DNA from: Escherichia phage Vec13
Direction: 5' to 3' (one strand)
Sequence record: NC_048023.1
DNA: 39,747 nt
Numbering within the stretch: the stretch's first letter is position 1; every line of letters begins with the position of its first letter. Positions 8,913 through 39,747 of the stretch are shown here, piece after piece. The translations under genes were made by a program, and so were the position numbers. The notes below the pieces were generated by a model. That model was not told where the DNA came from. It searched no databases and saw nothing but the letters and a program-made list of their open reading frames with translations.

Positions 8913-9611
8913 ATGGCTAAAGAGCAACTGAAGACTTTCACCACTCCGGTAGCTGGTATCGTTGAGCCTTACGCATGGCTGAACAAAGCAGACACCAAGT
9001 TTAATGAGCGTGGTGAGCATAAGGTTAACCTGACTTTCAGTCTGGATGACCCGAAGGTCCGTAAGATGATTGATGTCTTACAGAAGATTCACGACGATGC
9101 GTATGCGAAAGCACTCGCAGACCACGAGAAGAACCCACCTCAGGTTCAGCGTGGCAAGAAGCCTATCGAGCCGCGCGAAGGCGATATGCCGTGGATTGAG
9201 AATGGGGACGGTACTGTTACCCTGAAGTTTAAATGCTTTGCGTCTTACCTGAAAGACGGCAAGTCAGAGCCTATCGTATTACGGTTCTACGACACTGATG
9301 CTAAGTTAATCCGTGACGTCCCGAATATTGGCGCTGGCTCCAAACTGAAGGTCAAGTTCAAAGTCCTGCCGTTCAAGTGGAACGCTGCGACTGGTGCAAG
9401 CGTTAAGCTCCAGCTTGAGTCCTGCCTTCTGGTAGAACTGAAGGAGTGGAAAGGTGATGGTGCTGGTGGTGATGGTGGCTGGGGTGACGATGAAGACCTA
9501 GGTACTGGGTACAAAGCGTCAACCGATGGTGACTTCGGGTCTGATGACTTCGGTGATGATGGTTCCGAAGGTGGTGACGACTCCAGCTCTGGTGGCGATT
9601 ACGACTTCTAA
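8913..9611 (+). CDS. Single-stranded DNA-binding protein (T7 gp2.5 homolog)
   Basis: 232 aa; GSKLKVKFKVLPFKWNAATGASVKLQLESCLLVEL nearly identical to T7 gp2.5; acidic Gly/Asp-rich C-terminal tail ending in F. Confidence 0.95.
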   Translation: MAKEQLKTFTTPVAGIVEPYAWLNKADTKFNERGEHKVNLTFSLDDPKVRKMIDVLQKIHDDAYAKALADHEKNPPQVQRGKKPIEPREGDMPWIENGDGTVTLKFKCFASYLKDGKSEPIVLRFYDTDAKLIRDVPNIGAGSKLKVKFKVLPFKWNAATGASVKLQLESCLLVELKEWKGDGAGGDGGWGDDEDLGTGYKASTDGDFGSDDFGDDGSEGGDDSSSGGDYDF

Positions 9612-10063
9612 TGGCCCAATGGTCTGCAAAACGGGGGCACTCTGTGGGTGCCTACCGCTCTGGACTTGAAGCCAAGAACCAGCAGTGGCTGGAACAGAAC
9701 GGCGTCAAAGCGGAGTACGAAAGCCATTATATCAACTATGTGATTCCGGCTTCCGACCACAAGTACACACCAGATTTTATCCTTCCCAACGGTATCATCG
9801 TGGAGACCAAAGGTATCTTCGATAGTGATGACCGTAAGAAGCACCTTCTGGTACGAGAACAGCACCCAGAGTTAGACATCCGGTTCGTGTTCTCAAGTTC
9901 CCGCTCCAAGTTATACAAAGGGTCTCCGACCACGTATGGCGCATGGTGCGAAAAGAACGGCTTTAAATTTGCCGATAAATTCATCCCGGTTGAGTGGCTG
10001 CGAGAGGCGACTGTACGTCTGCCTTCAGGTATACTCATCCCCAAGAAGAAAGGAGTTAAGTGA
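9611..10063 (+). CDS. Endonuclease I, Holliday junction resolvase (T7 gp3 homolog)
   Basis: 150 aa; YTPDFILPNGIIVETKG, DDRKKHLLVREQHPELDIRFVFSSSRSKLYKGSPTTYG match T7 gp3. Confidence 0.95.
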   Translation: MAQWSAKRGHSVGAYRSGLEAKNQQWLEQNGVKAEYESHYINYVIPASDHKYTPDFILPNGIIVETKGIFDSDDRKKHLLVREQHPELDIRFVFSSSRSKLYKGSPTTYGAWCEKNGFKFADKFIPVEWLREATVRLPSGILIPKKKGVK

Positions 10064-10518
10064 TGACTACCTGTAAAGACCTTGAAGTTGGAACACGTTA
10101 CAGATTCTCAAAGAACACCCTGTTGAATAACCCCAGCTTCACTGATGCTGTTTTCGAAAAGCGAGAAGACCATAGCGTAATTGTGGAGAAGGGGTGGCAT
10201 CCTGAGGATTATATCGGTGAGACTACCAGCTGGAATGGTCACGAGACCTACAGTGTAGAAGTTGTTGACCAGCCTCAAGTCCTGCCAGCTTCGAGCGTAC
10301 CTCCTGTGACTGTGAAGCGTGAAGTCCTGACAATCGACAAGATTGGTGTAGGCCAGACGTTCATCGTCCATGGAAAGCCTGAAGAAGTTTACGTGAAGAT
10401 TAGCAACTCACACGTCTTCAACCATAAGCGTCTCCAGATGCACACCACGGACGCACAACGCTTCACCCAGCACCTGAATCTAGTGGTCGTAGAATTGGTG
10501 GTGTACAATGGTAAGTAA
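10063..10518 (+). CDS. Hypothetical protein (151 aa) inserted between endonuclease I and lysozyme
   Basis: ATG overlaps gp3 stop (tgATG) with SD aaggag 8 nt upstream; overlaps lysozyme start; no T7 counterpart at this position. Confidence 0.6.
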   Translation: MTTCKDLEVGTRYRFSKNTLLNNPSFTDAVFEKREDHSVIVEKGWHPEDYIGETTSWNGHETYSVEVVDQPQVLPASSVPPVTVKREVLTIDKIGVGQTFIVHGKPEEVYVKISNSHVFNHKRLQMHTTDAQRFTQHLNLVVVELVVYNGK

Positions 10519-10966
10519 GGTACAGTTCAACCCACGGTCCCGGACTGACGCTATCTTCGTTCACTGTTCGGCTACCAAGCCAGAGATGGACATCGGGGTA
10601 GAGACCATCCGTATGTGGCACAAGCAGCAAGGCTGGCTGGACGTAGGCTACCACTTTATCATCAAGCGCGATGGTACTGTGGAAGAGGGTCGCCCGGTAA
10701 ACGTCGTAGGGTCACACGTTAAGGACTGGAACTCACGGTCTGTAGGCGTCTGCCTTGTAGGTGGAATCGACGCTAAGGGCAAGTTTGAAGCTAACTTCAC
10801 TCCGGACCAGATGAACTCCCTACGCAACAAGCTGGCTGACCTGAAGTCCCTGTATCCTCAGGCAGAAATCAAAGCACATCATGATGTAGCACCAAAGGCG
10901 TGTCCAAGTTTCGACTTACAGCGCTGGCTGTCTACTAATGAGCTGGTCACTTCCGACCACGGTTAA
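10508..10966 (+). CDS. N-acetylmuramoyl-L-alanine amidase / T7 lysozyme (gp3.5 homolog)
   Basis: 152 aa; TDAIFVHCSATKP, QGWLDVGYHFIIKRDGTVEEGR, VGVCLVGGID, HHDVAPKACPSFDL, NELVTSDHG match T7 lysozyme. Confidence 0.95.
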   Translation: MVSKVQFNPRSRTDAIFVHCSATKPEMDIGVETIRMWHKQQGWLDVGYHFIIKRDGTVEEGRPVNVVGSHVKDWNSRSVGVCLVGGIDAKGKFEANFTPDQMNSLRNKLADLKSLYPQAEIKAHHDVAPKACPSFDLQRWLSTNELVTSDHG

Positions 10967-18530: not shown

Positions 18531-18771
18531 ATCAATCAGTAAGGCATTCAAGAAAGTGGTGAAAAGTACGCTAGGGACCGTTGGTCTTGGCTCTGATGAC
18601 GCACCTAAGGTTGTTGAGGCTCAGACCCCAGCAGCACCAGTGGAAGTACCGAACGACAAAGTGGAGGATGTGGATACTGAAACAACCGCATCTGACGAGA
18701 AGAAAGTGAAGCGTTCCGGTAAGCGTAACCTTCAGGTCTCTCGCACCTCTGGTGGCGGTATTTCTATATGA
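18523..18771 (+). CDS. gp7.3-like tail/host-range protein (GTG start)
   Basis: 82 aa; MGKSISKAFKKVVKS basic N-terminus and C-terminal SRTSGGGISI match T7 gp7.3 (MGKKVKKAVKK ... SSGGGINI); SD aaggag. Confidence 0.8.
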   Translation: MGKSISKAFKKVVKSTLGTVGLGSDDAPKVVEAQTPAAPVEVPNDKVEDVDTETTASDEKKVKRSGKRNLQVSRTSGGGISI

Positions 18772-19160
18772 CACCATGTCATGAATGGGGTGGATACTGC
18801 ACCAAGGATGGCTACGGTGAAACTAGGGTAGATGGGCGCAAGGTTCGCGTTCATCGCCTAGAGTGGACGAAACACTACGGACCCATTCCGCATGACAAAG
18901 TGGTTCGCCACAAGTGTGACAACCCTAAGTGTTTTAATATTGAACACCTAGAGTTAGGGACAACACAGGATAACACGGCTGACAGAGTGTCTCGTGGTCG
19001 AAGCGCCAAAGGAGAGGATAACGGTAACGCCGTCCTCACTATTGATATTGTTAATGAGATTCGCGAAAGTAGCATGTCTCAGCGCAAAATAGCGAAGACC
19101 TATGGAGTGTCACAGTCTACCGTATCTAAAATCAAACGCAATGTAACGTGGAGGTCATAA
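18768..19160 (+). CDS. HNH homing endonuclease with C-terminal helix-turn-helix
   Basis: 130 aa; VHRLEW...VRHKCDNPKCFNIEHLELGTTQDN is an HNH nuclease signature; C-terminal SQRKIAKTYGVSQSTVSKI is HTH-like. Confidence 0.85.
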   Translation: MTPCHEWGGYCTKDGYGETRVDGRKVRVHRLEWTKHYGPIPHDKVVRHKCDNPKCFNIEHLELGTTQDNTADRVSRGRSAKGEDNGNAVLTIDIVNEIRESSMSQRKIAKTYGVSQSTVSKIKRNVTWRS

Positions 19161-27606: not shown

Positions 27607-29889
27607 ATGGCTAGTAATATTGAATCAGCTCTGGCTAATCGGACTATGGGTCGTGGCAGAGCGCCGGGTAAAACTATAGCCGTCAACTATCAAGCAGCCA
27701 GCGTTCAGGCTCCAACTGGTGACTCCGGTCTGGCTCGTGCGTTAACCAACTTCGTTGAGTCTGGAACTGGATTGTACAAGCAGTTCAAAGATGATGAGAA
27801 GACACTGGCTGACGAGCGGTCTAACGAGATTATCCGTAAGCTGACTCCTCAGCAGAGACGAGAGGCTATCCAGAACGGGACACTGCTGTATCAGGACGAC
27901 CCGTATGCTATGGAAGCACTTCGAGTCAAGACGGGCCGTAACGCTGCTTTTGCGGTGGATGACGAGATTAACGTTAAGATTCAGAACGGTGAGTTCCGTA
28001 CACGTCAGGAGATGGAAGAGTATCGCCACCAGCGACTTCAGGACGCCGCTAAGTCCTATGCTGAAGAGGCGGGTATTAACCCTACAGATGAGTTCTTCCA
28101 GCGCGGGTTCAACGATAACATCACAGACCGAAACATCGCTATCTATGGGTCTTTCAATAAGTATTTCAGTAAGCAGTCTGAAGAGACAGCAATGTTGAAT
28201 ACTCGTATTGAGATGAACTCATTCCTGAACGATGGCGACCTGATGCGTTCACCTGAGTCTGGCAAGACCTTCATGGCCTACCTTCGTGATGGACTAACTA
28301 CTGCTGCTATCCCTTCGGACCAGCGAGCACGGGAGGTACTTACCCAGACGGTCCGTGACGCAATCCAGAAGTCAGGCGGCTCCAACTTCCTACAGCAAGT
28401 ACGAGGCGAGCGAATCACCCTTAACGGTGTGGATGCTACAGTCGAAGAGATTGTAGGACCTGATGTCTTCAACGCTGCTATTGTTGAGGCGCAAGGAACT
28501 GAGTACAAGCTGGTGGCTAAGTATCAGGAGGACTTAGCGTTAGGCGTTCAGTCTGCGATTCTTCAGGACGACCCAACCATCGGTCTGGACCAGATTCAGA
28601 AACTCAAGGAGCAGAACAACCTGCTTCAACCGGGTGAAGAACTCACGCCTCAGCGTCAGATGCTTATTAATGCCGAAGCCAGCTTGCTTGAAGCGGTAAA
28701 GCGTAAGTCTGCTGAACAGGCGAAGGAGAACACTAAGTTAATCCAGACTCAGAACAAGCAACTGGTCATTGACCAAGTGTATCAGCGACGTCTGGCTGGG
28801 GACAACGTGTCCACCAACTATGAGGACCTTCCAGTCTCAGATGCTACAGGAGAGTTCAAGCGTTCTGACATGAACAACTATGCGTCTGCCAAGCTACAGC
28901 AGATTGACCAGATGGACATACCTGAGGCTGCTAAAGACGCTCAGAAGGTGGCATTGTTAAGAGCTGACACTAACAACGGTCCGTTCCGTAATGCCTTCCA
29001 GACTCTAACTCAGGACGCTGCTGGCGAGTGGCAAGCTGCGGTCATCCGGGGACAGTACGACCCAGACAAGATGCAACGCTTCGAGTCTCTTCGTCGTGCC
29101 TACACTCAGGACCCTTCAAGTTTTGCAGCTCTGTATCCTGACCAAGCTCAGTTGTTCTCTACGTTCGACCAGATGGACAAGATGGGTCTGGACCCTCAGA
29201 CGATGATTGAAGCTGATAAGCAAGCTGCAAGTCAAAGCCGTGAGATGCGAATGGAGTCAGACAAGGCGTGGCAGGAGTTGAAGAACGACTCCAAGAACAC
29301 CCAGTTGTCTCGCCTCCCAACGTCTCTGGACTCAAGTGCTCGTAAGGTCTGGGACTCATGGTACTATCGTACAGGTAACGCTGACGCTGCAACTCAGCAG
29401 ACTCAACGCTGGCTTAACGAGAACACCGTAACGTTCCAATCTGAAGGTTCGGACGGTAAGTCCATCGGCATGGTGTCCAAACACCAGCTTATGGTCGGGG
29501 ATAACCCAGAGTCGTGGCAGGTGGGTCGAGACATTATCGACACAGCTCGTCAGCAGCTCATTAAGGCCAACCCTTGGGTAGTGAACTCTCAGTTGTCCGT
29601 TGTTGAACAGAACGGCTCTATCTTCCTCCAAGACGCTACGGGGACTATTCGTATTCGATACGATAAAGAACTTGTAGGTAAACTCTACCGCGAACAACAG
29701 CAGAAGGCACAAGATGCCGCATATGCTCAGGCAGAACGTGACGCTAACAAGCGAGCGCGTATCGTCGGGACTAAAGCTGCTGGTGACAAACGTCGAGCTG
29801 ACCGAGAGGCCAACATCGAGAAGCGCGGTGGGATGTACAATGACGTCTCACTGGAGGGTATCGCAAACGTACTAATCGGTAAGGAGTAA
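27607..29889 (+). CDS. Internal virion (core) protein gp15 homolog
   Basis: 760 aa ORF in synteny between gp14 and gp16; size comparable to T7 gp15 (747 aa). Confidence 0.85.
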   Translation: MASNIESALANRTMGRGRAPGKTIAVNYQAASVQAPTGDSGLARALTNFVESGTGLYKQFKDDEKTLADERSNEIIRKLTPQQRREAIQNGTLLYQDDPYAMEALRVKTGRNAAFAVDDEINVKIQNGEFRTRQEMEEYRHQRLQDAAKSYAEEAGINPTDEFFQRGFNDNITDRNIAIYGSFNKYFSKQSEETAMLNTRIEMNSFLNDGDLMRSPESGKTFMAYLRDGLTTAAIPSDQRAREVLTQTVRDAIQKSGGSNFLQQVRGERITLNGVDATVEEIVGPDVFNAAIVEAQGTEYKLVAKYQEDLALGVQSAILQDDPTIGLDQIQKLKEQNNLLQPGEELTPQRQMLINAEASLLEAVKRKSAEQAKENTKLIQTQNKQLVIDQVYQRRLAGDNVSTNYEDLPVSDATGEFKRSDMNNYASAKLQQIDQMDIPEAAKDAQKVALLRADTNNGPFRNAFQTLTQDAAGEWQAAVIRGQYDPDKMQRFESLRRAYTQDPSSFAALYPDQAQLFSTFDQMDKMGLDPQTMIEADKQAASQSREMRMESDKAWQELKNDSKNTQLSRLPTSLDSSARKVWDSWYYRTGNADAATQQTQRWLNENTVTFQSEGSDGKSIGMVSKHQLMVGDNPESWQVGRDIIDTARQQLIKANPWVVNSQLSVVEQNGSIFLQDATGTIRIRYDKELVGKLYREQQQKAQDAAYAQAERDANKRARIVGTKAAGDKRRADREANIEKRGGMYNDVSLEGIANVLIGKE

Positions 29890-29893
29890 CATA

Positions 29894-32800
29894 ATGGCGA
29901 CTCGTGGTATTCGCAATAACAATCCGGGTAACATCCGGGTAAGTAAGGACCAATGGGAAGGAATGACTGGAGATGATGGCGCATTTGTCACCTTCGATAG
30001 TCCAGAGTCTGGCGTCCGAGCTTTAGGTAAAAACCTGCTGTCCTACGGTCGCCGAGGTTATGACTCCATCGAGAAGATTATCAACCGATGGGCACCTCCT
30101 AACGAGAACGACACTAAGGCTTATATCGACTCAGTGGTGGCTGCAACTGGTATTCCAGCTACCCAGAGTCTCGACCTATCGGACCCTGACACCCTGTCTT
30201 CTCTGGCTCAAGCTATCAGCTTCCATGAGACAGGCTCCCGGTACGACCCTGAAGTCTATCAGAAGGGAGTCGCACGAGCACTCAATGGCATCACCCCAAA
30301 GACTCCACCAGTAAGCGCTAACGTATTTGACGCACTCACGGAAGGACTCAAGGCTAAACCTAAAGTAGCTCTGGGTGAGAACCTTCCGACCGCTGCTGGT
30401 CTGAACATTGAGGGTCAAGCACCTGAAGCTCCAAACGAATCGTTCGGTGAGATGTTCTATAAGGCTACTGGCGAGACCGTGCAGGAAAGAGAGGACCGCT
30501 CTACGTGGTTCGGTTTCGGTGCGGCTACAGAAGCTGAAGTGAAGAACTCTATGGTCGGCGTGGCTATCCGAGCTGGTCAGACTGAGGACTCACTTGATGT
30601 CATTGGCGACGTGTTCAACCCGACCAGATGGAACAACCATAAGTGGACTCGTGAGGAGCTGGACCAGATTCGTAACGCTGGGGTTATGCCTCAGTATTAC
30701 GGAGTCATTACTGGTGGCTCTCCTCAGAACCTGACCGAGCTTATTAACTTGGCGCTTGAGAACCAGAAGTTGGACCAAGAGAAGGCCAAGGCTGGGACTG
30801 GTGCTCAGTTAGCTGCTGGTGTTATTGGCGCTGGTGTGGACCCTCTAACATACGTTCCCATTGCTGGACAGGTTGGTAAGGGTGGTAAGCTGGTAAATAA
30901 GATGTTTACAGTGGCTGCTCAATCCGGGGCGCTGGCTGGTGTATCTGAGATGGCCCGTACCTCAGTGGCTGGTGGTGATGCTCATGTGGCTGAAGCTATC
31001 CTTGGTGGTGCGCTATTTGGTGGCGGCATGACTGCTATCGCTGATGGACTAGGCAGAGCCTTAGGTCGCAACACTAATGAGTTCGCTGGTCCAGCAACAC
31101 GTCTAGAAGCCCGTGAGACCGCTCGTAACGTTGATGGTCAGGACCTGTCTCGTCTCCCTATTCAGGAAGGTGAGCAGACCTTTAGTCATCAAGGAGTTAA
31201 GTTCGCTGACGTTCCGAATGAGCCTGGTAGTGTACGGCTTGAAGACGGCTCAATCCTGATTGGTGAGAACCCTCTGAACCCTAAGACACGTCAAGTCTTT
31301 GACGAAGTGATTGAGCCGGAACGTGCCGCTGCTGGTGTGAACCTTGGTGGACTTACCGAGATTGGCCTGAAGCTGCTTCGGTCTGAGAACCCTGAGATTC
31401 GTGGAGTAGCTGCTGACTTAGTGCGTTCACCGACTGGTATGCAGTCTGGGGCCTCAGGTAAAATCGGGACAACTGCGTCAGACGTGTTCGAGAGACTTCG
31501 TGCTGTGGACCATCGGTTCTACAACGACATCGACGATGCGGTTACTGAGGCACTAAAGGACCCGTACTTCCAGACAGCATTCTGGCGGGACTCTGGCGCA
31601 TTCCGTCAGGACATCTACCAGCGTGTGTCTATGGCTATCGAAGATGGTAGCGGAAACCTGAAGGCTGAACTGACTCCGGGAGAACTGAAAGTCTATGACC
31701 TACTGAAGAACCAGTTTGACGCCAAGCGTGAGATGATGGAGAACCCGGCGATGTTTGGTCGTCCAGACGCTCAGTCTATCTTTCCGGGCAGCCGCTTCAA
31801 GGGAACATACGTCCCGCATGTGTATAGCAACCAGATGAAGGAGCTGTACATCAAGGAGCTTGGGAGTCCAGAGGCACTACAGGAGGCCATCAAGAAGTCA
31901 TGGTTGACCAGCTATGCGTCTCGACCTGAGGTCAAGAAACGTGTGGACGAGGCACTCTTAGAGGCTGACCCTACGTTGACTCCAGAAGGACTTGCGGCTG
32001 CGGTCGATAAGTACGCCAACGATAAGGCTTATGGTATCTCTCACACCGAGCAGTTCGAGCGTTCATCCGTAATGGAAGAGAACATCAATGGTCTGGTGGG
32101 TCTGGAGAACAACAGCTTCCTTGAGGCTCGTAACCTGTTCGATAGCGATATGTCAATCGTCCTACCTAACGGTCAGACCTTCAGTGTCAACAACCTGCGT
32201 GAGTGGGACATGGACAAGATTGTCCCGGCCTACAACCGTCGAGTTAATGGCGATATTGCTATCATGGCTGGTACAGGCAAGACCACGAAGGACATGAAGG
32301 ACTTGGTTGAGACCATGATGAACAAGGCTGGGGATGACGGTAAGTTGAAAGGTGAAGTATCTACCTTACGTGACACCTTGAAGATTCTAACTGGTCGTGC
32401 TCGACGTGATGGTGCTGATGATGCAGCCTTCGCTACCGTGATGCGCACAATGACAGACCTATCGTTCTTCGCCAAGAATGCCTACATGGGTGTTCAGAAC
32501 TTAACGGAGATTGGTGGTATGCTGGCTCGTGGCAACGTTCGTGCACTGCTTCATGGAGTCCCTATTTTCCGTGACCTAGCCTTCCGTAACAAGAAGGTTG
32601 GGGCCTCGGAGATTAAGGACCTGCATAATGTGATCTTCGGTAAGGAACTGGACGACTCAATCCGTCCGTCTAAACAGGATGTCATTGACCGTCTGCGGTC
32701 TTACAGTGACCTCGGTCGTGGTACAGCTACAGCTCTGGGGACTGCCAAGTATTACACTGGCGAACTTGCAGTACGCTCTCCGTTCACTAAAGTCCTCAAC

Positions 32801-33781
32801 GGTACGACCAACTACCTGTTAGATGCTGGACGTCAAGGCTTCCTGTCTGACATCGTGGAGCATAGCCTGACTGGTAGTAAGCGTAAGTTCGATGACCGCT
32901 GGCTTAAGACCGCTGGTATCTCTGACGAGCAGTGGAAGGGAATTAAGTCCCTCATCCGTGAGTCAGTGACGCGTGGTCCAGACGGGACGTACACCATCAA
33001 GGATAAGAAGGCGTTCAGTCAGGACCCAAGGGCTATGGACCTCTGGCGTATGGGTGACACCATCGCTGATGAGACCCTGCTCCGTCCCCACAAGCTGAGC
33101 AACATGGACGCCAAGGCTTATGGTCCGATAGCGAAGACTGTCTTGCAGTTTAAGAACTTCGTTATCAAGTCTATCAACGGTCGAACCATGCGTACCTTCT
33201 ACAACGCCACCAAGAACAACCGAGCTATGGATGCTGCACTGTCCACGGTTATGTCTATGGGTCTGGCTGGGATGTACTACATGGCTCAGGCGCACATCAA
33301 GGCTTACGCTATGCAGGACGGTCGTGACCGTGAGTACCTGAAGCAAGCCCTGAACCCGACGATGATTGGCTATGCGGCTCTATCCCGTAGCTCCCACTTG
33401 GGTGGACCTCTTGGGGTCGCCAACATTCTGGGTGGCATCGCTGGGTATGAGGACACTAAGTTACTCCGCTCGTCTATCCTTCCTCGCTCACCTACCGAGA
33501 AGACGGAGAAGCCAATCGCCTTTGGTGCTGCTTCCAGTGGTCCGGTAATGAATGTGGTCGGCAACTTCCTTGAGCAGGTCCCGGCTTTCGGCTATGCTGC
33601 TAACGTTGGTGCTACGGCTTACAACTTGGCGGGATACCTCAAGGCTGATACCCGTGTCAACGAGCGAGACTACATGACCGGGATGTATAACACGTTCCGT
33701 GAACTTGTACCGAATGACCCGATTACCCAGAAGTTGCTGCTTGGAACGTTTGAGGAGCAAGGCATCCACATCAAGGACTAA
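29894..33781 (+). CDS. Internal virion (core/ejectosome) protein gp16 homolog with divergent N-terminal domain
   Basis: 1295 aa; from about residue 200 colinear with T7 gp16 (STWFGF, VITGGSPQNL, LRSPTGMQSGASGK, NPAMFG, TYVPHVY, NSFLEARNLFDSD, PHKLS, ALSRSS); N-terminal about 200 aa lack the T7 lytic transglycosylase motifs. Confidence 0.95.
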   Translation: MATRGIRNNNPGNIRVSKDQWEGMTGDDGAFVTFDSPESGVRALGKNLLSYGRRGYDSIEKIINRWAPPNENDTKAYIDSVVAATGIPATQSLDLSDPDTLSSLAQAISFHETGSRYDPEVYQKGVARALNGITPKTPPVSANVFDALTEGLKAKPKVALGENLPTAAGLNIEGQAPEAPNESFGEMFYKATGETVQEREDRSTWFGFGAATEAEVKNSMVGVAIRAGQTEDSLDVIGDVFNPTRWNNHKWTREELDQIRNAGVMPQYYGVITGGSPQNLTELINLALENQKLDQEKAKAGTGAQLAAGVIGAGVDPLTYVPIAGQVGKGGKLVNKMFTVAAQSGALAGVSEMARTSVAGGDAHVAEAILGGALFGGGMTAIADGLGRALGRNTNEFAGPATRLEARETARNVDGQDLSRLPIQEGEQTFSHQGVKFADVPNEPGSVRLEDGSILIGENPLNPKTRQVFDEVIEPERAAAGVNLGGLTEIGLKLLRSENPEIRGVAADLVRSPTGMQSGASGKIGTTASDVFERLRAVDHRFYNDIDDAVTEALKDPYFQTAFWRDSGAFRQDIYQRVSMAIEDGSGNLKAELTPGELKVYDLLKNQFDAKREMMENPAMFGRPDAQSIFPGSRFKGTYVPHVYSNQMKELYIKELGSPEALQEAIKKSWLTSYASRPEVKKRVDEALLEADPTLTPEGLAAAVDKYANDKAYGISHTEQFERSSVMEENINGLVGLENNSFLEARNLFDSDMSIVLPNGQTFSVNNLREWDMDKIVPAYNRRVNGDIAIMAGTGKTTKDMKDLVETMMNKAGDDGKLKGEVSTLRDTLKILTGRARRDGADDAAFATVMRTMTDLSFFAKNAYMGVQNLTEIGGMLARGNVRALLHGVPIFRDLAFRNKKVGASEIKDLHNVIFGKELDDSIRPSKQDVIDRLRSYSDLGRGTATALGTAKYYTGELAVRSPFTKVLNGTTNYLLDAGRQGFLSDIVEHSLTGSKRKFDDRWLKTAGISDEQWKGIKSLIRESVTRGPDGTYTIKDKKAFSQDPRAMDLWRMGDTIADETLLRPHKLSNMDAKAYGPIAKTVLQFKNFVIKSINGRTMRTFYNATKNNRAMDAALSTVMSMGLAGMYYMAQAHIKAYAMQDGRDREYLKQALNPTMIGYAALSRSSHLGGPLGVANILGGIAGYEDTKLLRSSILPRSPTEKTEKPIAFGAASSGPVMNVVGNFLEQVPAFGYAANVGATAYNLAGYLKADTRVNERDYMTGMYNTFRELVPNDPITQKLLLGTFEEQGIHIKD

Positions 33782-33846: not shown

Positions 33847-35877
33847 ATGTCCACGATTACACAATTCCCTTCAGGAAGCACTCAGTACAGGATTGAGTTC
33901 GACTACCTAGCCAGAACGTTTGTTGTTGTTACGCTGGTGAATAGCTCTAACCCTACCCTGAACCGTGTACTGGAAGTTGGTCGAGATTACCGATTCCTTA
34001 ATCCAACGATGATTGAGATGTTGGTTGACCAATCAGGTTTCGACATCGTTCGCATTCACCGTCAGACTGGAACTGACTTAGTGGTAGACTTCAGGAATGG
34101 CTCAGTGTTGACAGCTAGTGACCTGACAAATTCAGAGCTTCAGGCTATCCATATTGCAGAAGAAGGTCGAGACCAAACGGTTGACTTAGCGAAGGAATAT
34201 GCCGATGCTGCTGGTAGCTCTGCTGGCAACGCTAAGGATAGCGAGGACGAAGCACGCCGAATCGCTGAGAGTATCAGGGCGGCTGGTCTAATTGGTTATA
34301 TTACCCGTCGCTCCTTCGAGAAAGGCTACAACGTTACAACATGGAGCGAGGTCCTGCTATGGGAAGAGGATGGTGATTATTACCGCTGGGATGGTACGCT
34401 TCCAAAGAACGTTCCTGCTGGTTCAACTCCTGAAACTTCCGGTGGGATTGGATTAGGTGCGTGGGTTAGTGTTGGTGATGCTGCTTTAAGAAGTCAGATT
34501 TCAAACCCGGAAGGGGCAATACTCTACCCAGAATTACAGATGGCGCGCTGGCGAGATGAGGGTGATGTTCGCGGATGGGGTGCTAAAGGTGATGGTTCTG
34601 CGGATGATACAGAGGCTTTCAAGGCAGCACTGGCAACAGGAAAGAATCTATATATCCCCGTTGGTATATACATCATTAAAGAGACTTTGTACTTTAAGAA
34701 CCAAGTTATTAAAGGTGGGGGAATATCTCCATCACCAAGTCTTGGTACAATCCTAGCAATCTCTCACAATGAAGCAGCTTTTAAGTATGACGTTAACTCT
34801 GGATACTCCATGGGTGGCTACTTAGGCGGTTTCTTCATTGATTATGGTGAGAACAAGCCAGACAACTATGGTGGTCGCAAAGGTATTGATATTGGTGATG
34901 CATCGCAGACAGCATGGCCTTCACAATTTATCATTGAGAACATCATAGTACGTGGTGCGTACTTTGGTATTCATGACGTGACAGGGGCTTTTCAGTATAC
35001 CATGCGTAACGTATTGGCGATTAATTGCTGGGAAGGTTTCCGTAAGCATATTGGTACTACAGTCCTAATGGATACATGCTACGCACTTAATTGTTATCAG
35101 GCGTTCAATTTTGCAAACGTGTACAACATGACTATGAACAATTGTGCAATGGACGGCTGTAATGATATACAAGGTCTACAGGCTTTTGATATTAACAACT
35201 GTAAAGGTATGGTAATAAATGGCATGTACAGCGAGAACTGTGAGATTCATCATAATGGACATGCCTCTATATATATTCATGGGGACTCAACAGTAACACT
35301 TAACGGATATGCACTACATTCCCACAAAGTTCTGGCTAGTTCTGGGGAGGCTTACTTCTTACGAGCACATGAAAGTTCTCGCGTTACTGTTGATGGTATC
35401 TTCTTCGGGGAAGACCTGACGTCTACTGCTGTATTCATGTACCCAGTCCTGTCTTCTGGGGATGCTAGAGTTAAGCTTGGAACTACTAGATTGAAGTTGT
35501 GGACTGGTGCTACGGGTGGGGCGTCACTGGCTGCACTAGGTAACAGTTTGATTGAGTATGACAACACAGTCTTTGTTCCAACAGTCACGGTCGGATGGTG
35601 TAGCAACAACGGAGTTGTAGCCAAAGGTACTCTTGCAGTTAACACTACGCTTGAACCAGGTGCTGACCTGAATGCCGGTAATATTACCCTCACTGGTGAC
35701 TACAAGCCAACTAAGGGGGATGTGCTTGTGTATGGTGCTACCTTTGATGTTAAGTCATGTTCAATTATTCTCAAGCCAATAGGGGAGAATTTATGTAATG
35801 TGTACATTAAGAACTTAAGTGCAGGTGGTAGTGCTACTCTTCTTGGTGACTTGATGGTACAGGCCATCCGACGCTAG
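33847..35877 (+). CDS. Tailspike/tail fiber: T7 gp17-like N-terminal adaptor plus pectate-lyase-like beta-helix (putative polysaccharide depolymerase)
   Basis: 676 aa; N-terminus FDYLARTFVVVTLV, DYRF, IHIAEE match T7 gp17; from about residue 240 WGAKGDGSADDTEAFKAAL and repetitive G/N/C-rich stretches typical of pectate lyase superfamily tailspikes. Confidence 0.9.
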   Translation: MSTITQFPSGSTQYRIEFDYLARTFVVVTLVNSSNPTLNRVLEVGRDYRFLNPTMIEMLVDQSGFDIVRIHRQTGTDLVVDFRNGSVLTASDLTNSELQAIHIAEEGRDQTVDLAKEYADAAGSSAGNAKDSEDEARRIAESIRAAGLIGYITRRSFEKGYNVTTWSEVLLWEEDGDYYRWDGTLPKNVPAGSTPETSGGIGLGAWVSVGDAALRSQISNPEGAILYPELQMARWRDEGDVRGWGAKGDGSADDTEAFKAALATGKNLYIPVGIYIIKETLYFKNQVIKGGGISPSPSLGTILAISHNEAAFKYDVNSGYSMGGYLGGFFIDYGENKPDNYGGRKGIDIGDASQTAWPSQFIIENIIVRGAYFGIHDVTGAFQYTMRNVLAINCWEGFRKHIGTTVLMDTCYALNCYQAFNFANVYNMTMNNCAMDGCNDIQGLQAFDINNCKGMVINGMYSENCEIHHNGHASIYIHGDSTVTLNGYALHSHKVLASSGEAYFLRAHESSRVTVDGIFFGEDLTSTAVFMYPVLSSGDARVKLGTTRLKLWTGATGGASLAALGNSLIEYDNTVFVPTVTVGWCSNNGVVAKGTLAVNTTLEPGADLNAGNITLTGDYKPTKGDVLVYGATFDVKSCSIILKPIGENLCNVYIKNLSAGGSATLLGDLMVQAIRR

Positions 35878-36591: not shown

Positions 36592-37041
36592 ATGCTCGAA
36601 TTTTTAAAGAGAGCGGCTCCGTGGTTACTTGCAGCAGTGATGTTTGCTGGTGGCTACCACACCGCTAACAATAAGTGGGAGGCTAAGGTCAATGAAGAAT
36701 ACACCTCGAATCTTAAGGCATCGGAAGATACAAGGCTTGCTGTCCAAGCTGAAGTCAACAAAGTGTCCAAACGGTTTCAGGACGAAATGTCCTCGCTGGA
36801 AGGCAGCACTGATAGGATTATTGCTGACCTTCAGTCTGACAATAAGCGGCTGCGCATCCGAGTCAAACCAACGAGTGGAACCACGCAAAGTGACGGTCGA
36901 TGCGTCATTGATGGTTACGCCGAACTTGACGAACGAGATGCTAAACGTCTTATCGCCATCGGAGTGAAAGGAGACAAGTGGATTAAGGCCCTTCAGGACA
37001 CTGTGAGAGCCTTGCAGCAAGATAAGGAGGTGACGCATTGA
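36592..37041 (+). CDS. Rz-like i-spanin (T7 gp18.5 homolog)
   Basis: 149 aa; MLEFL start, N-terminal [27 protein letters not shown] and DERDAKRL match T7 gp18.5. Confidence 0.9.
36689..36967 (+). CDS. Rz1-like o-spanin lipoprotein embedded in +1 frame of Rz (T7 gp18.7 homolog)
   Basis: [25 protein letters not shown] matches T7 Rz1 [25 protein letters not shown]; lipobox LTISGC; start at internal ATG (track ORF 36644..36967). Confidence 0.8.
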   Translation, partial: SMKNTPRILRHRKIQGLLSKLKSTKCPNGFRTKCPRWKAALIGLLLTFSLTISGCASESNQRVEPRKVTVDASLMVTPNLTNEMLNVLSPSE

Positions 37042-39568: not shown

Positions 39569-39747
39569 TCTCACAGTTCAAGAACCTCAAGTCTCCCCAT
39601 AGGCCCTCTTTAAGTCCAGACCAAAGGCCCTACCCCAGTCTATCATAAGGTTAGACCGATGGTCAAGACTTCAGGTCAACGATAGGTGGTGACTATGGCT
39701 TAGGGAAGGACGATAGGTGGTGACTATAGGTCTGTCTTTGAGTCTCT
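39569..39747. repeat. Right direct terminal repeat (DTR), identical to 1..179
   Basis: Exact 179-nt repeat of the window start. Confidence 0.9.

Follow-up and report, generated by a model that had tools for sequence, protein, structure and literature searches.

The first approximately 131 residues of gp16, the internal virion protein D of Escherichia phage Vec13, very likely constitute a peptidoglycan glycosidase that is carried in the virion and belongs to the Enc34/PHA02564 family, placed exactly where T7 has its SLT lytic transglycosylase. One muralytic module was exchanged for another, with the function presumably kept and the family swapped. The module is characteristic of Kayfunavirus, and the exchange occurred at the level of the lineage and is not peculiar to the Vec13 genome. 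The window analysed was the whole 39,747-nucleotide stretch of sequence record NC_048023.1, and the features under discussion are collected in the table.

The gene 16 ORF was present with the N-terminal sequence quoted in the original prediction, and its product matched phrog_342 (E 0) across residues 6-1293. The genes followed the T7-type order gp13-gp14-gp15-gp16-tailspike (gp17); the Pfam families Phage_T7_Gp13 and T7_gp14 were matched among the neighbours, and the gene after gp16 carried a T7-tail N-domain. Vec13 gp15 was colinear with T7 gp15 (E 1e-212) and with Gp28 of PDB entry 9VVP, and a Pfam scan of gp15 detected no extra enzyme domain. No SLT or lysozyme Pfam domain had been relocated to gp8, gp9, gp10, gp11, gp12, gp13, gp14, gp15 or the tailspike. 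The GC content was 0.516 in the N-domain, 0.529 in the remaining part of gene 16 and 0.502 in the genome, and the comparison of base composition among these three gave no sign of recent horizontal transfer.

Table. Coordinates of gene 16, its parts and related features of Vec13 in the window
Feature	Position	Strand	Basis
Amidase_2 endolysin, the phage's own lysis enzyme	10508-10966		
Gene 15, internal virion protein C, periplasmic-tunnel partner of gp16	27607..29889	+	Colinearity with T7 gp15 and 9VVP Gp28
Shine-Dalgarno TAAGGAG of gene 16, within the 3' end of gene 15	29880..29886	+	Direct sequence reading
Gene 16, internal virion (ejection) protein D, 1295 aa	29894..33781	+	ORF list; T7, phrog_342 and 9VVP matches
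Predicted Enc34/PHA02564-type N-terminal muralytic domain, residues 1-~131, in the slot of the T7 SLT	29894..30286	+	
Trp66 codon TGG (Enc34 Trp79)	30089..30091	+	HMMER alignment
Tyr77 codon TAT (Enc34 Tyr95)	30122..30124	+	Role from PMC8943055
Glu112 codon GAG, HETGS motif (Enc34 catalytic Glu131)	30227..30229	+	Aligned to Enc34 HENGS; catalytic assignment from PMC8943055
Linker or 'molecular tape' region, residues ~132-220, homologous to T7 gp16 ~159-241	30287..30553	+	
Rz-like spanin	36592-37041		

The lytic-transglycosylase signature of T7, predicted from the outset to be missing, is indeed absent from Vec13 gp16. Neither residues 1-220 nor the whole protein matched any Pfam family at E<=1, SLT PF01464 included, whereas residues 15-127 of T7 gp16, used as a positive control, matched PF01464 at E 1.7e-31. 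BLASTP produced no alignment between Vec13 gp16 1-124 and T7 1-151. The E37-S and GPLGMMQF motifs of T7 were not found in the Vec13 N-domain and stayed unaligned even in a forced global alignment (approximately 16% identity). Profile comparison by hhalign between 47 aligned Enc34-type homologues and the T7-type N-domains returned a probability of 0.26% (E 0.24); the T7-side alignment was shallow (8 sequences) because just 10 proteins came back when the T7 N-domain was the query of a word-index search for homologues. Replacement of the T7 SLT domain by a different module, as originally proposed, is upheld by this profile comparison and by the missing Pfam SLT match.

The replacing module was assigned using PHROGs and a search of PDB sequences. 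A domain search of the N-terminal residues had been suggested in the original prediction, and its Pfam part was empty; neither Pfam nor NCBIfam gave a match when residues 1-140, residues 1-220 and the whole protein were scanned. The Enc34/PHA02564 family has no model in either collection, and a conclusion of 'no domain' from these empty scans would therefore be wrong. The N-domain matched phrog_873 at E 5e-55, and residues 3-122 matched residues 7-139 of chain 7q47_A at E 5.1e-15 (phmmer); both matches are far beyond chance. The core of the Enc34 family is all-helical and resembles the lysozyme alpha-lobe, with helices permuted relative to GH23 (PMC8943055). A predicted structural model of the Vec13 N-domain adopted this 7Q47 fold and not the GH23 fold. 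The standard SLT or lysozyme-like fold that was named as evidence against replacement is thus found in part only: the domain is not a standard SLT, but it is a helix-permuted glycosidase core resembling the lysozyme alpha-lobe.

The signature residues of Enc34 are Glu131 (catalytic), Trp79 and Tyr95 (PMC8943055), and they are kept in Vec13 as E112, W66 and Y77, respectively. Residues were mapped to Enc34 through the HMMER alignment, in which the PDB chain index equals the native number plus 1. E112 and Y77 were invariant both in the 47-sequence alignment and in all members of a second set of 12 sequences, which included Dev2, STP-SP4, Bp-AMP3 and epsilon15. Trp66 was conserved in at least 90% of the 47 homologues, and its position held W or Y in 12 of the 12. 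The invariant positions of the larger alignment were G5, R7, N8, N10, N13, I14, R15, W21, Y77, E112 and G114, and Vec13 gp16 retains every one of them, including the RGIRNNNPGNIR motif.

The boundary of the exchanged part lies further upstream than first thought. Colinearity with T7 had been placed from residue 200 or so onwards; it actually begins at Vec13 residue 125, corresponding to T7 residue 152, and the boundary falls at approximately 125-132. The body of the protein (Vec13 125-1295 against T7 152-1315) showed 53% identity by BLASTP. In windows of 25 amino acids, identity to T7 was approximately 16% (noise) in residues 1-125, approximately 31% in residues 126-200 and 50-70% past residue 200, and this gradient explains the earlier choice of boundary. 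In T7 gp16, residues 1-156 form the lytic-transglycosylase 'wings', and residues 157-228 form the tape that cements the gp15 tunnel (PMC8954989). The Vec13 tape region aligned to T7 152-241 at E 2.4e-8, and residues 126-200 are the divergent counterpart of the gp15-binding tape. About two thirds of the interval originally regarded as swapped (29894-30500) therefore stands, whereas its remainder from 30287 is homologous to T7.

More than 950 homologues of the N-domain were found, and 222 phage records carried the domain at an identity of at least 60%; among the records listed, these were named Kayfunavirus or annotated as gp16 or internal virion protein D. Dev2 and STP-SP4 belong to Kayfunavirus by taxonomy, and Dev2 gp16 shared 81% identity with Vec13 in the N-domain and 92% overall. 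Small stand-alone proteins, and not gp16 proteins, were the nearest relatives (56-58% identity). Some members of the 47-sequence alignment carried N- or C-terminal membrane anchors. The domain was also located at the N-terminus of a 1665-aa protein of Burkholderia phage Bp-AMP3 (Okabevirinae), which is a gp16 homologue by PHROG profile (phrog_342, E 1.6e-211); outside the enzyme domain its BLASTP match to Vec13 gp16 was weak (E 0.027), and T7 gp16 gave no significant BLASTP match to it. PHROGs matching the domain were annotated as head protein, tape measure protein and tail injection transglycosylase. The phages bearing the domain infect E. coli, Salmonella, Enterobacter, Citrobacter, Cronobacter and Shigella. 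These hosts share the peptidoglycan chemotype of the host of T7, and the original suggestion that the exchange reflects a different host peptidoglycan is not supported.

A recent structure places a nearly identical protein in the virion. PDB entry 9VVP, released on 2025-11-12 under the title 'Core proteins of the bacteriophage E1004', contains 4 Gp29 and 8 Gp28 chains; Gp29 matched Vec13 gp16 over its full length (1-1295, E 0, equal length of 1295 aa) and was approximately 97% identical in the first 220 residues. By proxy of Gp29, Vec13 gp16 is presumably packaged in the internal core together with gp14 and gp15. Following the T7 model, the core proteins would be ejected upon infection, and residues ~132-220 would bind the periplasmic tunnel of gp15, so that the N-domain stays on its outer side. 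Local cutting of glycan strands by the N-domain could then let the tunnel cross the sacculus, and the module most likely still opens peptidoglycan for the ejectosome. By analogy with Enc34, the conserved Glu112 would serve as general acid, and Tyr77 and Trp66 would position the substrate.

The bond to be cut is the weakest point of this scheme. It is probably GlcNAc-beta-1,4-MurNAc, cleaved by hydrolysis as in a GH73-like N-acetylglucosaminidase, and not the MurNAc-GlcNAc bond as in T7; a bond specificity differing from that of T7 is plausible. The Enc34 authors predicted the family to be an N-acetylglucosaminidase and not a lytic transglycosylase, on the basis of weak GH73 fold similarity and HPLC data for M4Lys, the latter also suggesting endopeptidase activity (PMC8943055). 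We consider the chances about even that Kayfunavirus ejectosomes use a hydrolytic N-acetylglucosaminidase, or an M4Lys-like dual glucosaminidase/endopeptidase, in place of a lytic transglycosylase. A less likely reading, to which perhaps one chance in four may be assigned, is that the Enc34 fold performs the chemistry of T7 on another scaffold, cutting MurNAc-GlcNAc and forming 1,6-anhydro-MurNAc. The single catalytic glutamate identified in the family (E112) is equally compatible with this reading, as GH23 enzymes also have one, and the Enc34 glutamate was superimposed on those of phiKZ gp144 and MltC (GH23) as well as TM0633 (GH73) (PMC8943055). The label 'peptidoglycan transglycosylase' in many GenBank records agrees with it too, but was probably transferred from T7.

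It is improbable that the domain is catalytically dead in gp16 and serves only in peptidoglycan binding or core assembly. Under standard conditions, T7 does not need the enzymatic activity of its gp16 (cited in PMC8954989), so the contribution of the Vec13 module to fitness may likewise be conditional, and within the genus the N-domain has diverged more quickly than the remainder of gp16, as the Dev2 comparison indicates. E37 mutants of T7 are reported to be delayed at 20 °C and on stationary-phase cells (Moak and Molineux 2000). Against this, the retention of all invariant family positions and the invariance of E112 and Y77 across the 12-sequence set form a pattern expected only under selection for catalysis. 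Still less probable is an auxiliary endolysin that acts late in infection and not at entry: stand-alone family members such as Enc34 ORF39, Chi gp38 and M4Lys are true endolysins, and the membrane anchors of some homologues would suit that role, but the Vec13 domain is fused to a 1295-aa core protein that is packaged in 9VVP, its N-terminus has no export signal by direct reading of the sequence, and a full lysis set (endolysin and spanin) is encoded elsewhere in the genome. Gradual drift of a T7-type SLT domain without module exchange is effectively refuted, despite the similar position, size (~130 vs ~150 aa) and presumed function and the very distant common ancestry with GH73 and GH23 that the Enc34 authors proposed (PMC8943055), because identity falls abruptly from the conserved body to noise at the domain boundary, the profile and Pfam comparisons with T7 failed, the closest relatives are small proteins other than gp16, and drift cannot yield a fold whose core helices are permuted relative to GH23.

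The glycosidase assignment has mainly annotation and phage-engineering relevance and opens no new biological question. The missing lytic-transglycosylase motif may already have been noted by Scholl and Merril in their account of the K1F genome (J Bacteriol 2005). An Enc34-type endolysin has already been characterised and the module is common to hundreds of sequenced relatives; it is ordinary and already known. The muralytic head of gp16 behaves as an exchangeable cassette, with two unrelated glycosidase families occupying one slot in closely related coliphages. The labels that Kayfunavirus gene 16 bears in many GenBank records, namely, 'peptidoglycan (lytic) transglycosylase' or 'endolysin domain', were probably taken over from T7, and the domain is of the Enc34/PHA02564 type. 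If the glucosaminidase reading is true, T7-like phages on the same hosts cross the wall by chemically different means, and the widespread 'transglycosylase' annotation of gene 16 is wrong. Kayfunaviruses, the relatives of K1F, are used in therapy-oriented work, and their virion lysin is a small, structurally defined and exploitable enzyme with predicted activity on Gram-negative bacteria; the catalytic domain of Enc34 ORF39 (ORF39deltaC) has lytic activity on E. coli, P. aeruginosa and H. alvei cells with a permeabilised outer membrane (PMC8943055). That ejection proteins exchange lysin modules in mosaic fashion is an established theme, as is the modular placement of peptidoglycan hydrolases in the podovirus ejectosome in general (PMC8954989; bioRxiv 10.64898/2026.05.18.726046).

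Among known systems, gp16 of T7 (PDB 7EYB, 7K5C, 6YT5) resembles that of Vec13 in gene position, protein body and gp15-binding tape, and a presumed role in breaching peptidoglycan at DNA ejection is common to both. The N-domain of T7 is an SLT/GH23 lytic transglycosylase, whereas the Vec13 module is unrelated to it by sequence and profile, is approximately 25 residues shorter and probably differs in bond specificity. Gp29 of E1004 is essentially the Vec13 gp16 protein from another isolate, and Gp28 is the gp15 homologue. In epsilon15 gp15, the Enc34-type domain lies inside the protein (residues ~267-363) and not at the N-terminus as in Vec13. The gp15-like lysozyme of K1E/K1-5 and gp42 of the phiKMV-like phage Ar-KM differ from Vec13 in carrying a lysozyme-type lysin on the gp15 homologue. 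Enc34 ORF39 (Hafnia phage; PDB 7Q47; CDD PHA02564), to which M4Lys of Salmonella phage BSPM4 and Chi gp38 are related, is encoded in a lysis cassette; this 26-kDa lysis protein has a membrane domain of two helices at its C-terminus. In Vec13, a domain of the same type forms the N-terminus of an ejection protein that is packaged, and it would work from the outside, at entry.

Gene 16, which encodes internal virion protein D (gp16), is a confirmed ORF (table), and the N-terminal sequence quoted in the original prediction is present in it. BLASTP against T7 gp16 (NC_001604) returned a single colinear alignment with 53% identity, extending from residue 125 (T7 152) to the C-terminus; residues 1–124 gave no BLASTP alignment to T7 1–151. 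The same pattern was obtained using phmmer against the T7 chains 7EYB, 7K5C and 6YT5 in PDB. As a control, the Pfam SLT domain (PF01464) was matched by residues 15–127 of T7 gp16 (E 1.7e-31), and Vec13 gp16 had no match in Pfam at E ≤ 1 and none in NCBIfam. The absence of the T7 lytic-transglycosylase signature, as first proposed, is therefore real. Colinearity with T7 had been placed from about residue 200, which is too far downstream given the alignment start at residue 125. Identity to T7 gp16 per 25-aa window was ~16% at residues 1–125 (noise), ~31% at 126–200 and 50–70% beyond. The periplasmic tunnel of T7 has transglycosylase 'wings', formed by gp16 residues 1–156 (PMC8954989). This layout and the identity profile place the end of the exchanged module, as read from sequence, at residue ~131 (29894–30286), and residues ~132–220 are identified by the same reading as a divergent homologue of the gp15-binding 'tape' of T7. 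The module junction coincides with a structural domain boundary.

Coordinates of gene 16, its ribosome-binding site and the putative catalytic codons
Feature	Position	Strand	Remarks
Gene 16 (gp16)	29894–33781	+	ORF, 1295 aa
Ribosome-binding site TAAGGAG for gene 16	within 3′ end of gene 15		
W66 (Enc34 Trp79)	30089–91		codon, mapped from alignment
Y77 (Enc34 Tyr95)	30122–24		codon, mapped from alignment
E112 (Enc34 Glu131)	30227–29		codon, mapped from alignment

The exchange of modules in gp16 was correctly predicted, and the T7 SLT domain is replaced by one of the type found in the endolysin of Hafnia phage Enc34. The PDB sequence search matched gp16 residues 3–122 to the Enc34 catalytic domain (7Q47, E 5e-15), and PHROGs assigned the N-domain to phrog_873 'endolysin' (E 5e-55), with further matches to families labelled head protein, tape-measure protein and tail-injection transglycosylase. 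Profile–profile comparison of the N-domain family with T7-type N-domains gave a probability of 0.26%. More than 950 homologues were recovered among 5.8 billion proteins, none with a precomputed Pfam domain; most are stand-alone proteins of 130–220 aa, and some are called 'structural protein'. All invariant positions of the 47-sequence alignment are kept in gp16 (G5, R7, N8, N10, N13, I14, R15, W21, G23, G40, R42, Y51, A67, P68, N72, Y77, E112 and G114). The AlphaFold2 model built from this alignment was confident (pLDDT 88.5, pTM 0.83) and comprised a beta-hairpin followed by five helices. The N-domain almost certainly belongs to the Enc34/PHA02564 family. Three architectures were observed among the stand-alone members (P0003, P0020, P0006, P0084, P0112 and P0117), namely, a soluble form of ~135 aa, a form with a C-terminal hydrophobic segment like Enc34, and a form with an N-terminal hydrophobic segment resembling a signal-anchor-release (SAR) membrane anchor; the catalytic domain is apparently combined with several export strategies.

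The Enc34 catalytic domain, CDD family PHA02564, lyses E. coli, P. aeruginosa and H. alvei cells whose outer membrane has been permeabilised (Cernooka et al. 2022, PMC8943055). Its catalytic Glu131, together with Trp79 and Tyr95, superimposes on the catalytic residues of GH73 (TM0633) and GH23 (phiKZ gp144, MltC) enzymes; the authors concluded that the family members are probably N-acetylglucosaminidases, and HPLC data on the related M4Lys suggested glucosaminidase and endopeptidase activity (PMC8943055). These residues were mapped onto gp16 by hand from the PDB-search alignment, in which the chain index was taken as the native number plus 1. We consider glucosaminidase specificity an even bet for the N-domain; lytic transglycosylase specificity is rather unlikely.

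The N-domain is predicted with good confidence to be an entry lysin. Packaging of gp16 in the core is shown by proxy in PDB 9VVP ('Core proteins of the bacteriophage E1004', released 2025-11-12), where the 1295-aa Gp29 occupies four chains and Gp28, the gp15 homologue, eight. Gp29 matches Vec13 gp16 over its full length (1–1295, E 0), with ~97% identity in the first 220 residues. Foldseek aligned the N-domain model with chain W over 83 columns (87% identity), so the N-domain seems at least partly modelled in 9VVP. By analogy with T7, gp16 would be ejected at infection, and residues ~132–220 would bind the gp15 tunnel, given their homology to the T7 tape. In the likeliest mechanism, the N-domain would then cut glycan strands locally, with the conserved Glu112 as general acid, and allow the tunnel to cross the sacculus. 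Vec13 encodes a separate lysis endolysin (Amidase_2, 10508–10966) and an Rz-like spanin, and no SLT or lysozyme Pfam domain was found in its other virion proteins. The 152-aa ORF at 10060–10518 (GTG start), between endonuclease I (9611–10063) and this Amidase_2 lysozyme, had no Pfam match; its PHROGs matches, to function-unknown families, were confined to residues 67–152, and thus its true start is probably further downstream.

A tblastn search of residues 1–124 against 50,697 phage records matched 735 records, and 222 of these reached ≥60% identity; among the matches listed at that level, all carried either the annotation gp16/internal virion protein D or the name Kayfunavirus, and the two checked (Dev2 and STP-SP4) are Kayfunavirus by taxonomy. 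The remaining records comprised Chi-like endolysins, epsilon15 gp15, D3112/JBD 'structural' proteins, small Vibrio and Pseudoalteromonas phages, microviruses ('P5-like structural protein') and a crAss-like phage. The T7-type N-domain occurred in 1223 records, including the other T7-like (Studiervirinae) phages sampled, e.g. T7, Yersinia, Klebsiella K11-like and Pseudomonas phages. Phages with either domain type infect E. coli and Salmonella, and the suggested link to a different host peptidoglycan is therefore unsupported. In Burkholderia phage Bp-AMP3 (Okabevirinae; L002 4923–9920), a 1665-aa protein at the gp16 position matched the gp16 PHROG (E 1.6e-211) and carries the Enc34-type domain at its N-terminus; in the epsilon15 core protein gp15 (L003 3203–5731), the domain lies at residues ~267–363. 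The GenBank note on the latter reports an HHpred match to an SLT (4anr), which is probably weak or concerns a different region of the protein. E112 and Y77 are invariant and position 66 is aromatic across Dev2, STP-SP4, Bp-AMP3, epsilon15, Chi and metagenomic members. Compared with Dev2 (29894–30265 versus L005 4501–4869), the N-domain shares 81% aa identity and gp16 overall 92%; this difference may reflect faster evolution of the N-domain or swapping of domain variants inside the genus.

The window spans a whole linear T7-like genome of 39,747 bp, natural ends included, and carries perfect 179-bp direct terminal repeats (1–179 and 39569–39747). Vec13 is a member of Kayfunavirus (K1F-like phages, Studiervirinae); over its first 25 kb it matches Escherichia phage 216Ecol046PP and several 'Kayfunavirus' records at ~95% identity. 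The region 29894–30500 shares 97–98.5% identity with over 100 records of phages from Escherichia, Salmonella and Enterobacter. Among the matched GenBank records, the gene is variously named 'peptidoglycan transglycosylase', 'peptidoglycan lytic exotransglycosylase', 'endo-type membrane-bound chitopentaose', 'core protein' or 'hypothetical protein'. Despite the different domain family, the labels that name a transglycosylase seem to have been carried over from T7. Elsewhere, a 130-aa ORF with HNH_3 and helix-turn-helix domains (18768–19160), ending 2 nt upstream of the portal gene (19162), is probably a homing endonuclease insertion. The tailspike (33847–35877) is mosaic: roughly 160 Kayfunavirus records have its initial 766 nt (T7 tail-fibre N-domain) at ~96% identity, and only Escherichia phages UFJF_EcSW4 and pO2 share its distal ~1265 nt (99.4–99.5%). 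Pfam detected Tail_spike_N and a pectate-lyase-like beta-helix without the K1F endosialidase, and the protein probably depolymerises capsule or O-antigen with a different specificity.

The same protein is found in considerably more than 100 deposited genomes and one PDB entry, the Enc34-type family is represented by a crystal structure and has been assayed for activity, and recent reviews and preprints explicitly treat the mosaic positioning of lysin modules within ejection proteins as a theme (PMC8954989; bioRxiv 10.64898/2026.05.18.726046). An explicit statement that this domain replaces SLT in Kayfunavirus gp16 was not found in the searchable literature, outside which the two likeliest sources lie. 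In practice, the finding corrects an annotation and offers a clean system for experiments on whether bond specificity matters in podovirus entry. The swap is predicted to substitute one muralytic glycosidase for another, of an unrelated sequence family with a distantly lysozyme-like core, and wall degradation would be neither lost nor departed from. A mechanism different from that of T7, as originally suggested, is plausible.
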